From the IMG/VR virus record IMGVR_UViG_3300009071_000006: DNA of 64,000 nucleotides. The stretch is one strand, 5' to 3'. The stretch comes from a virus. Below the pieces are notes generated by a model that was not told the origin of the DNA, did not search any database, and saw only the letters and a list, made by a program, of their open reading frames with translations. The position numbers were made by a program, and so were the translations under genes. Of this stretch, positions 10,836 through 19,069 are shown piece after piece; position 1 is the first letter of the stretch, and the number at the start of each line of letters is the position of its first letter.

Positions 10836-10864
10836 ATAAAACCATAAGTTATTATTTATGTCAA
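10836..10864 (-). promoter_or_regulatory. Sigma70-type promoter: UP A-tract, TTGACA, N17, TTTTAT, then TAAATCATA
   Basis: Minus strand AAAAAGGGTTGACATAAATAATAACTTATGGTTTTATTAAATCATATT. Near-identical to the promoter at 18401-18373. Confidence 0.55.
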
Positions 10865-10899
10865 CCCTTTTTGATATTTTATTTTAAAAAAGTTTTTCC

Positions 10900-10937
10900 A
10901 AAAGTCCTAGAACCCTTATAAACACTAGGGTTTAGCC
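10900..10937 (-). terminator. Rho-independent terminator-like hairpin after the large RNA
   Basis: Minus strand GGCUAAACCCUAG-UGUUUAU-AAGGGUUCUAGGAC (stem with one bulge), then UUUUGG. Confidence 0.5.
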
Positions 10938-10989
10938 TTTTTATTTTTTTAAAAAAACTTTAATTTTTTATTAAACAATTTGCAGTTTT

Positions 10990-12180
10990 CTAATTTAAAG
11001 AGTGCTAGACAAGGTAGGAGTCGAACCTACAAGAGGATAGATTAGACTGCATTCCGCACCTCTCTTATCACCACCTATTTGCAGTTAAGTTAGAACTTGT
11101 TAGCATATAAAATTGATTCGCCCTCACACTCAGCATTGGATTCCGTGTACTTTGGAAGTCGGCTCTAGTGTAAGGACTTGGACTTTGCCACAGGCAGATT
11201 TGACTGATTACCCTGCGAAGTTCTGATGTTATCTCACGGATTGATTCCGTCCGTCCCATTAAAATGTATCCATTGGCTTATCGTCACCTTGGTCAGATGA
11301 TCCGTTGCCTTGTCTTAACGCTTGCCTCACGTAATGCTCGCTTTCACTAAACGCATAGGAGGATTCTATAAGATAGGCTTAGGTATCTGAGTCAAGTTCA
11401 CTCGATGTAAGCACAACCTCAATGGATTAAAATAATTAGATGGCTCTCTGCGCCTCATGGAGTCGTTCGTTGCTCCATGCACCTTCTTCGATAGGGTGTG
11501 TGACTGAGGGTCAGTTGGCACTTACGCATACCTGTTTTATATCTCCGCTTATTAAGGATTCTCTATAATCCTCTGACCTACGACTTGCTTAACGCTTGTC
11601 TCTCCCGAAGAAGGGAAAGCCTACCATTCACAAGCCTTGGTTATTACCACGCTTTAAAGCGCAGAGAGCCATCTAAAAATTAATTTGCCTTTAGGTATGG
11701 TCTAGTACGACTATCGTGTATCACATTGCTCTAACCTATGAGATGGCATCATGAAAGTGGCAGTATCCACAGACATAACACTTGACTCAATAGGGAGTGT
11801 TTTAACACGAATAGCGTAGGCACATTGACCTAAAGACAAGATATTAACTTAGAGTCTACTTTCGTAGGAGAGTAGCTGATTTTCTCTATCCCTCGGTGTT
11901 TCATCTCTCTAAGCTAATATCAAAGTTACTCAATAAAACCTTCCGTTAGCAGGGGCGCCGTCTTCATCTAGGAGCGTCAAGTGGTATTGCCATAGATAGC
12001 AGGGACAAGCGTTAACTTGTTTGCCTCGTTCGATAAGAAAGATTCCTGTGAGCCTAATCGAAAAGTTTTACTGAATAACTTTTGTTATAGTTTTTGTTTT
12101 GATCGGCTTTTGGCTGATCCCCTCTTTAGTCTTTTTGGTCGTGTTGCCTTTTCTTTAGCTCAAGGTGCTTTGTTGAATAT
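10990..12180 (-). ncRNA. Large (~1.2 kb) structured non-coding RNA candidate, class unknown
   Basis: It has its own promoter and terminator and no credible ORF, and it is GC-enriched relative to its flanks. Helices: an 18-bp perfect helix (11676-11659/11453-11436) and a 15-bp helix (11921-11907/11854-11840) capped by a GAAA tetraloop hairpin, plus many local hairpins. The 3' end is tRNA-like. Confidence 0.6.
11004..11104 (-). ncRNA. tRNA-like module (T-arm plus acceptor-like helix) at the 3' end of the large RNA; not a canonical tRNA
   Basis: Minus strand GUAGG-UUCGACU-CCUAC (11030-11014) is a textbook T-arm. It is followed directly by CUUGUCUAGC, which pairs with GCUAACAAG (11104-11096). 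I could fold no anticodon arm. Confidence 0.4.
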
Positions 12181-12186
12181 GATTTA

Positions 12187-12215
12187 AACCTATTGCTTTT
12201 TTTCATAAATGTCAA
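12187..12215 (-). promoter_or_regulatory. Sigma70-type promoter of the large RNA: UP A-tract, TTGACA, N17, TAGGTT, then TAAATCATA
   Basis: Minus strand AAAAAAAATTTCAAAGTAGCTTGACATTTATGAAAAAAAGCAATAGGTTTAAATCATATTC. Confidence 0.6.
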
Positions 12216-12249
12216 GCTACTTTGAAATTTTTTTTAAAACTTTTTTTCT

Positions 12250-12288
12250 TAAAACGGCTAAGTCCCTGTATTCATAAGGGATTCAGCC
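12250..12288 (-). terminator. Rho-independent terminator-like hairpin after gene 12312..12500
   Basis: Minus strand GGCUGAAUCCCU-UAUGAAUAC-AGGGACUUAGCC (11/12 paired, including one G-U), then GUUUUAAG. Confidence 0.5.
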
Positions 12289-12311
12289 TGTAAAAAAAAG
12301 TTAAATATTTT

Positions 12312-12500
12312 TTATTTTTTTTCTGCACTTTTTGATTTTTCTGCAATTCTTGCTTGATCTATTAAGTTTTTTAGCGTCTCTAGCCTGTGCTTAATATTGC
12401 TCATAACTAAGTCTGACCCATTCCAATTTCTCACTTGCTGACTAAGTGCTTCGCGTTCTTCGTATATTGATTTATCTTTAGGTAAGTTTCTTGCTTTCAA
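12312..12500 (-). CDS. Hypothetical protein (62 aa)
   Basis: ORF track. Last gene of an operon, followed by a terminator. Confidence 0.5.
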   Translation of the reverse strand: MKARNLPKDKSIYEEREALSQQVRNWNGSDLVMSNIKHRLETLKNLIDQARIAEKSKSAEKK

Positions 12501-18401: not shown

Positions 18402-19069
18402 GACATCTTCAAAAAAAAGTTAAATATTTCTTGTAGCATTATGCTTCATTACGGCTAGAACCCTCTTGTTTACTGACATTGCGAGCTGTTAATTTATTTT
18501 AAAAAAAAGGTAAAAAAATTTTAAAATAGTTTTGCTGAAATTGATTTAAAGCAAAATTCACCTTGTAAATCTAGTATTACATTACTGATTTTCGAGGTAA
18601 GTTATGATAGAAGGGGCAAGGAAGAATACCAATAAAAACTTCCCTGCCCCCCTGTCATGCAAAGGAGCTTTTGGATCATCATTGAGATTTTCTGCCTCAA
18701 CTCGCCTTATCGCTTGCGACCATAATAATAAATAAGAAAGAAATGGTCTCCCATATATAATAGGTCAGGCAAATAGTAAAAGCGCAACCTCTAGAAAAGT
18801 TTTTTTTAAAAATTCCGAAAAAAATAATCTATCCCTACTCTTATATATATGTGTCCCATATAACACAGTTTAAGATAGTGACTCGAATAACGAATGGAAA
18901 CGTCGTAAGGTACAGCTTGCTTGTAGTGATGTCCAAATGGATGAGCCAAGTAAGTCGGTAGGTGCAGTTAGAACTCATTGTAGTTTCCCTGAAACCTTGG
19001 AGGTAATGCAATATCCCTCCCTATCTTTTCTTTCTTTTAAATTTATTTTAAAATATTTGAATAAAAGTA

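Follow-up and report, generated by a model that had tools for sequence, protein, structure and literature searches.

A tRNA-shaped RNA behind a giant non-coding RNA in a marine phage: a candidate trans-acting mimic with close relatives in otherwise unrelated phages

What is a textbook transfer RNA (tRNA) T-arm doing directly behind a giant non-coding RNA in a phage genome? We took up this question in the window, a 64,000-nucleotide (nt) stretch that represents the minus strand of a complete 83,952-base-pair (bp) IMG/VR virus record (IMGVR_UViG_3300009071_000006). The phage is tailed and encodes a large terminase subunit, several methyltransferases and an amidoligase. Minus-strand open reading frames (ORFs) cease in the window between ~12312 and 10737, where G+C content is 43% as against ~35% around it, and the element in question lies in this gap on the minus strand, at 11104-11004. 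A first-pass annotation had described it as a minihelix, lacking an anticodon arm, at the 3′ end of the giant RNA. We conclude that 11104-11004 is probably a complete gene for a 101-nt tRNA-shaped non-coding RNA, from a family not in Rfam, which would be co-transcribed with the giant RNA, excised and then act in trans as a tRNA mimic. The parts of the proposed gene are as follows.

11004..11104, minus strand: the whole tRNA-shaped RNA gene, 101 nt, spanning the ends of the closing helix and scoring 119.3 bits with covariance model R1
11096..11104, minus strand: 5′ strand of the acceptor-like helix, 9 nt, partner of 11013-11004
11068..11094, minus strand: arm 2, at the D-arm position, from RNAalifold and covariation
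11031..11066, minus strand: arm 3, at the anticodon-arm position, from RNAalifold and covariation
11014..11030, minus strand: canonical T-arm, with a 5-bp stem (11030-11026/11018-11014) and the 7-nt loop UUCGACU (11025-11019)
11004..11013, minus strand: 3′ strand of the acceptor-like helix, in which base 11008 forms a single-nucleotide bulge

The fold rests on an alignment of nine distinct homologue sequences. Run without a supplied structure, RNAalifold returned the identical four-way junction, in the order closing helix, one U, arm 2, one base, arm 3, T-arm and 3′ strand. Standard pairs occupy 98.0-99.6% of the cells, and both sides have changed in 11 pairs: five of nine in the closing helix, three of five in the inner stem of arm 2, two of three in the inner hairpin of arm 3 and one of five in the T-stem. 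The closing helix is paired in 100% of its cells across the nine distinct homologues, and the bulge, C11008 in the window, recurs in every member, as an A in other phage groups. Column shuffling of the alignment, repeated 500 times, never attained the real value on four of five measures; the exception was further pair types, where 11 of the 500 shuffles did so on A6. Sliding the partner strand by 1-3 columns lowered pairing to ~40%. The outer stem of arm 3 is invariant except for one A-U to G-U change in locus L038, and the compensatory change in the T-stem, U-A to C-G, comes from L029, a locus found with a pattern outside the T-arm. A covariance model built from eight of the homologues (R1) scored 135-140 bits on the other complete loci and found one copy per record.

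These results uphold two features of the first-pass annotation, the T-arm, whose coordinates on the minus strand were exact, and the 9-bp closing helix with its bulged C. That annotation had also seen only one stem in the ~80 nt between the two helix strands. In its place the alignment gives a hairpin at 11090-11073, extended to 11094-11068, and a second, inner hairpin at 11055-11044, both of which covary, so the supposed armless minihelix is actually a full four-way cloverleaf with two non-canonical arms. Arm 2 consists of an inner 5-bp stem (11090-11086/11077-11073), three outer pairs and an 8-nt loop (11085-11078) containing CUGCAA. Arm 3 has a 5-bp stem (11066-11062/11035-11031) and an inner hairpin with the 6-nt loop AUGCAG, and it adjoins the T-arm directly, leaving no variable region. 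Both arms are strongly conserved in sequence. Pairing between their loops (CUGCAA with UUGCAG) is possible and tolerates the one change observed; it lacks compensatory support and was dropped, as was a short reading frame through arm 3, which is not preserved in the window.

Could the resemblance to a tRNA simply be inherited from one? The T-loop motif occurs twice in the 64-kilobase (kb) window against 0.10 matches expected, the second occurrence lying inside a 661-codon ORF. An exact scan of IMG/VR with a pattern comprising the T-arm and part of the 3′ strand returned one match, a genuine tRNA-Trp of an unrelated phage (L003), which is identical to the window over 24 nt, comprising the T-arm and the adjoining 7 nt of the 3′ strand. 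This identity led us to consider a dead remnant, either the decayed 3′ piece of a tRNA or an attachment site copying the end of a host tRNA, in which the pairing with the 5′ strand would be coincidental. Decay of this kind does not fit compensatory changes in four helices, nor a gene that is 97% conserved beside a flank at 85%. A search of the complete ~84-kb genome for an integrase (PF00589) gave no match, and no exact copy of the 24-mer was present in one genome each of 185,579 species. We regard a remnant as scarcely credible, and as refuted in practice by the covariation.

Is the product then a working tRNA? The T-arm is canonical in all members, with a 5-bp stem closed by a G-C pair and a UUCRANY loop. 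The rest of the geometry departs from that of a tRNA: the acceptor-like helix has 9 bp and a bulge, the loop at the D position has no GG, and the loops measure 8 nt in arm 2 (6 if its end bases pair) and 6 nt in arm 3, never 7. The earlier statement that no canonical anticodon arm or D-arm can be drawn thus stands. ARAGORN reported no tRNA or transfer-messenger RNA (tmRNA) in the window or at this site in the homologous loci, which answers the first-pass concern that a canonical molecule had been misfolded by hand; over the whole phage genome it found zero tRNA genes. A "tRNA-Thr" at 11080-11006, obtained by relaxing ARAGORN to 80% thresholds, was rejected as noise, being one of 30 such calls in 84 kb. 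At gathering scores Rfam had no match at the element. Searched permissively, the Rfam tRNA model (RF00005) scored 15.6 bits against a threshold of 29, using another 5′ partner, and the tRNA-Sec model (RF01852) scored 19.8-20.8 bits against a threshold of 47, so that both stand at about half the threshold or below.

The tRNA-Sec model does align over the full length, with arm 2 as the anticodon arm, as would be expected of a working but rewired tRNA in which a Cys-type 7-mer in the arm-2 loop served for decoding and arm 3 was a giant variable arm. The aligned loop, however, holds GCA and not UCA, and the would-be anticodon reads GCA in the window and GCG in a sister lineage (position 11080). 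Loops of 8 or 6 nt, an acceptor/T stack of 14 bp, scores far under threshold and acceptor pairs that vary freely where tRNA identity should reside also speak against decoding. A rewired tRNA is disfavoured, and we hold it to be very unlikely. Because a 7-nt anticodon loop is missing, the RNA is, to judge from its predicted fold, a tRNA mimic rather than a decoder.

The same combination of acceptor helix and T-arm with no anticodon loop is found in tmRNA, and a divergent, tag-less mini-tmRNA, reduced to the tRNA-like domain, might titrate SmpB or disturb ribosome rescue in the host. Arm 3 abuts the T-arm without a variable region, as tmRNA helix 2a does, and a precedent has been proposed for an RNA of mycobacteriophage DS6A (PMC4131195). 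In members from ~140-kb phages, the UUCUG that follows the 5′ acceptor strand matches Escherichia coli ssrA; the window has UUCUA, four of five positions, and the stretch is too short to weigh. Against a mini-tmRNA, the alanine mark G3:U70 is missing, the third pair from the end being C-G or U-A and its counterpart counted from the T-arm an invariant A-U. The helix comprises 9 bp and a bulge, not 7 bp, and the unpaired D-loop of tmRNA is replaced by a true, covarying hairpin. No tmRNA match came from ARAGORN or Rfam, and R1 scored only 10.7 bits on E. coli ssrA. We consider a mini-tmRNA unlikely. Bacterial Y RNAs were compared as well. In YrlA the tRNA-like domain is permuted and the RNA ends lie in the Ro-binding stem; here the ends sit in the acceptor helix, and Rfam gave no YrlA or bacterial Y RNA match even at E up to 10.

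Whether the RNA depends on the giant RNA was addressed through its relatives. A scan of JGI metagenome contigs with a 22-mer across the 3′ strand of arm 3 and the T-arm found 11 loci. One is a copy of the window phage itself (L018), another is a true tRNA-Phe within an array of tRNAs (L021), and nine are full-length homologues. Two IMG/VR core patterns placed away from the T-arm added L027, L028 and L029. These 12 loci (nine metagenomic, three from IMG/VR) carry the tRNA-shaped RNA without the giant RNA, which is absent from G003-G005, the three IMG/VR records that could be searched whole. In these carriers the RNA occupies a short intergenic gap. In the two loci scanned, a sigma-70-like site (TTGACT, 16 nt, extended -10) with 9-10 matches in 12 positions precedes the RNA, ending ~30 nt ahead of its first base; matching promoter hexamers are present in most of the other upstream flanks that could be aligned. 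At L022 a second promoter-like site begins directly past the last base of the RNA. Judged from these flanks, the RNA is a free-standing gene with its own promoter-like site in other marine phages.

This distribution bears on the role implied by the first-pass annotation, in which the element belonged to the giant RNA. Such a 3′ module would act in cis only, to signal processing, stabilisation or CCA tagging, and would have no independent role. It has in its favour the position directly behind the giant RNA with no promoter between, repeated in the sister lineage (L009 and L038), and tRNA-like 3′ modules of long RNAs have a precedent in MALAT1-mascRNA (PMC8457004). It does not account for 12 loci in other phages that lack the giant RNA and have a promoter-like site upstream wherever the flank was read, and the strong sequence conservation of arms 2 and 3 would be superfluous in a mere processing signal. 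A purely cis-acting module is in our judgement decidedly unlikely. The idea of a tRNA-like module thus survives in its T-arm stacked on an acceptor-like helix, and falls in its minihelix form and in a role specific to the giant RNA; as the RNA is free-standing in other phages, defining the 3′ end of the giant RNA would be at most a local side effect of co-transcription.

Who are the other carriers? Their contigs encode rIIB, PhoH, Gp88-family and DUF932 proteins, and the genomes that could be sized are ~140 kb by CheckV completeness. Their closest cultured relatives share only ~35% identity in rIIB. A Gp23 search was uninformative, giving no match even in control genomes, and for that reason we call the carriers large marine phages with rIIB and PhoH and not T4-like phages. 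When seven carrier loci were compared by tblastx with the whole genome of the window phage, nothing was shared but the RNA, which is ~85% or more identical across these phages; DUF932 and GP88 were searched in the window phage's genome and neither was found. No match came from 50,697 cultured phage records when either the whole unit or a stand-alone copy served as BLAST query, R1 returned just tRNA-level noise (13-14 bits) on T4 and the three cultured Vibrio phages nearest in rIIB, and two species-genome scans found no match. Literature searches did not recover the core motif of the RNA. A 19-mer match in IMG/VR (L014) was discarded as a chance match in GC-rich DNA, and L002, a locus reached through the upstream protein, lacks the tRNA-shaped RNA. 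Near-identity across otherwise unrelated phages suggests either recent transfer or a conserved target on the host side, and the sharing of an RNA without shared proteins points to a host target rather than a phage partner.

Two observations concern the neighbourhood of the RNA in these carriers. Large marine phages of two very divergent groups have a DUF932 gene 0.4-1.7 kb upstream of the RNA (L022:1955-2794, L015:8751-9590 and L029:5253-6122), and the encoded proteins cannot be aligned by BLASTP. On the 3′ side, one subgroup has a conserved stretch of ~90 nt (L027:7112-7200, also in L016, L017, L019, L020 and L025) with a second inverted repeat resembling a T-stem, which may represent a further small structured RNA.

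How, then, is the RNA placed in the window phage? Only there and in the sister lineage does it stand behind the giant RNA, in the following arrangement.

11105..12215, minus strand: upstream giant-RNA unit, with a promoter-like site at ~12215-12187 followed by ~1.1 kb free of ORFs
11003-10938, minus strand: AU-rich 3′ trailer, read from the sequence
10937-10900, minus strand: terminator-like hairpin and U run, read from the sequence and retained with changes in L038

A promoter scan and inspection of the sequence found no promoter-like site between ~12215 and 11104, so co-transcription with the giant RNA is the simplest reading. A simple terminator scan gave no score to the hairpin at 10937-10900. 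The sister lineage is represented by two contigs from Logan sample DRR498524, L009 and L038, in which the flanking proteins are 56% (upstream) and 76% identical to those of the window phage. From the promoter onward, the giant RNA of L009 (L009:6770-7442) is ~97% identical to the window, although the upstream protein is just 56% identical. L009 lacks two internal domains, window 11812-11735 and ~11680-11445, the latter closed by a 17-bp perfect helix, and compensatory changes between the two sequences fall in a long helix that pairs ~11925-11911 with 11860-11846. L038 begins 78 nt beyond L009 and covers the remainder: identity is 91% over the last 138 nt of the giant RNA, 97% over the tRNA-shaped gene, 85% over the spacer in the next 66 nt and 84% over the hairpin. 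Of its three substitutions in the 101 nt of the gene, two preserve pairs (A-U to G-U at 11066, G-U to G-C at 11044) and the third is at 11080 in the arm-2 loop. The giant RNA has no GOLLD or ROOL match in Rfam, and an IMG/VR scan with its 5′ anchor gave no match.

Several further features of this region were noted. The 10-nt loop motif of arm 2 (11086-11077) is repeated exactly in the trailer at 10987-10978, 17 nt past the end of the gene, and this copy is mostly preserved in L038. Another 10-nt motif occurs twice in the giant RNA and is exactly complementary to a segment of a hairpin in the 5′ domain (12015-12006, 11598-11589 and 11324-11315, minus strand), which would allow long-range or intermolecular pairing. 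Contigs of 156 and 172 nt in two metatranscriptome runs from one study are ~97% identical to the window only over 11494-11662, a part of the giant-RNA domain that is optional in the relative, and give a weak hint of expression. A contig of run X11 that joins 10864 to 12292, skipping the whole unit, matches by only 22 nt on one side and was unusable. Behind the giant RNA, a second ORF-poor unit (10864-10347, minus strand) is also conserved in L038:420-1100; its first ~100 nt are nearly free of mismatches up to a 25-nt insertion in L038, after which large indels follow, and this pattern suggests another modular non-coding RNA. Ahead of the giant RNA, the summed depth of contigs over the terminator/promoter stretch at 12200-12330 climbs as high as 405-fold in one marine run, and many unrelated contig ends meet there, as at a short element widely repeated in marine sequence. 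Elsewhere in the window, at 18859-19030 on the plus strand, a manA RNA motif scored 41.3 bits against a threshold of 55.2 (E = 5.6e-8), which is sub-threshold yet significant.

We propose that the tRNA-shaped RNA is made as the tail of the ornate 1.1-kb giant-RNA transcript. Stacking of a T-arm on an acceptor helix is a recognition signal for ribonuclease P (RNase P), which normally measures 12 bp. The host enzyme would cut 5′ of G11104, releasing the small RNA and creating the 3′ end of the giant RNA; trimming of the AU-rich trailer would follow, and a host enzyme might add CCA. The recognition features are in place, with the T-arm on the closing helix, a G-C first pair in all members, a preceding base (-1) that is U in most, and a U-rich trailer, and the discriminator position is occupied by an A at 11003. 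Given these features, and the absence of a call by the tRNA finder, RNase P, RNase Z and the CCA-adding enzyme named in the first-pass annotation are plausible processors. Once mature, the RNA would work in trans, engaging a host component able to recognise the elbow and acceptor end of tRNA. The most concrete version of this idea, a decoy for SmpB resembling a mini-tmRNA, is at this stage a guess.

Several points weigh against this proposal. The alignment holds only nine distinct sequences from roughly three lineages. The search pattern that found most loci included the T-arm and the 3′ strand of arm 3, so that their invariance is in part selection bias; the T-stem change in L029 and every change in the acceptor helix and arm 2 escape it. 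Recent transfer rather than constraint could explain the high identity between unrelated phages. The single-sequence fold energy is no better than that of shuffles (z-scores of -0.1 to -1.5), a level that leaves the question decidable only by comparing relatives. As regards processing, the acceptor/T stack is 14 bp with a bulge against the usual 12, which makes the exact RNase P cut site uncertain, and CCA is not encoded in the gene, while a CCA-adding enzyme was absent from all four phage records searched. Finally, the metatranscriptome contigs stop short of the tRNA-shaped gene, and the discrete ~100-nt species and its cleavage sites are inferred.

Might the giant RNA and the mimic instead form one system? 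The large phage RNA would then be self-assembling, with the mimic as its cargo, its handle or the signal for its release, a role of the kind suggested for tRNAs linked to GOLLD cages. After release the mimic would serve as a decoy for a host factor that reads the elbow and acceptor end of tRNA, for example a tRNA-targeting defence nuclease, SmpB or a toxin that modifies 3′ ends. We consider a joint system rather unlikely; if true, it would be a new class of phage counter-defence RNA, horizontally shared among unrelated marine phages. Returning to the excised mimic, which we favour, the RNA adds a well-defined, covarying family to a known kind, the phage tRNA mimic. This family is invisible to ARAGORN and Rfam and will for that reason be unannotated wherever it is present.

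Phage tRNA look-alikes have been known since the T4 species 1 RNA of the 1970s, a stable RNA, and their function is still unexplained. In shape, T4 species 1 RNA (rnaC, 139 nt, NC_000866 70908-71046) is the closest known analogue, judged from a minimum-free-energy fold of L026:4909-5047 (z = -4.6). In both, the ends pair in an acceptor-like helix, the 3′ strand follows straight on from a canonical T-arm, and the other two arms are non-canonical. Both are phage-encoded and lie in a run of RNA genes; rnaC is annotated as co-transcribed with other RNAs, as the window RNA would be. They differ in that no similarity of sequence or model was detected (R1 gave no match at rnaC in L026 or in the whole T4 genome), the rnaC stem has 7 positions with mismatches against 9 bp and a bulge here, and arm lengths are not the same. 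Moreover, rnaC lies beside tRNAs, whereas ARAGORN finds none in the window phage. Canonical tRNAs and tRNA-Sec share with our RNA the four-way cloverleaf, a U right after the acceptor strand and the textbook T-arm, and tRNA-Sec also has a long acceptor helix; unlike them, it has no 7-nt anticodon loop, D-loop GG or variable region, and its stack is 14 bp.

The tag-less, "TLD only" mini-tmRNA of mycobacteriophage DS6A (Hudson et al. 2014, PMC4131195) likewise keeps an acceptor helix and T-arm without an anticodon, its helix abutting the T-arm with no variable region. The window RNA departs from it in having no G3:U70, a longer, bulged helix, a hairpin at the D position, a length of ~101 nt and no tmRNA call. 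For the fusion to a long RNA, the parallel is MALAT1, whose 3′ end is reported to be made by RNase P cleavage at a tRNA-like unit, mascRNA (PMC8457004). Both cases join a tRNA-shaped unit to a long structured non-coding RNA, but MALAT1 is eukaryotic and cleavage in the window phage is only predicted. Among giant phage RNAs, GOLLD and ROOL are often near tRNA islands, and the GOLLD linker sometimes holds tRNAs (bioRxiv 10.1101/2024.12.08.627333); those units are real tRNAs, unlike the tRNA-shaped RNA here. The present locus would be one more instance in which a giant phage RNA is accompanied by a tRNA-shaped unit, and it bears on the roles of GOLLD- and ROOL-type RNAs. What sets it apart from these systems is the pairing of two properties: near base-for-base conservation in marine phages with no detectable shared protein in the regions compared, and, in one lineage, fusion to an ornate 1.1-kb RNA, which would give the MALAT1-mascRNA arrangement a parallel in a bacterial virus.

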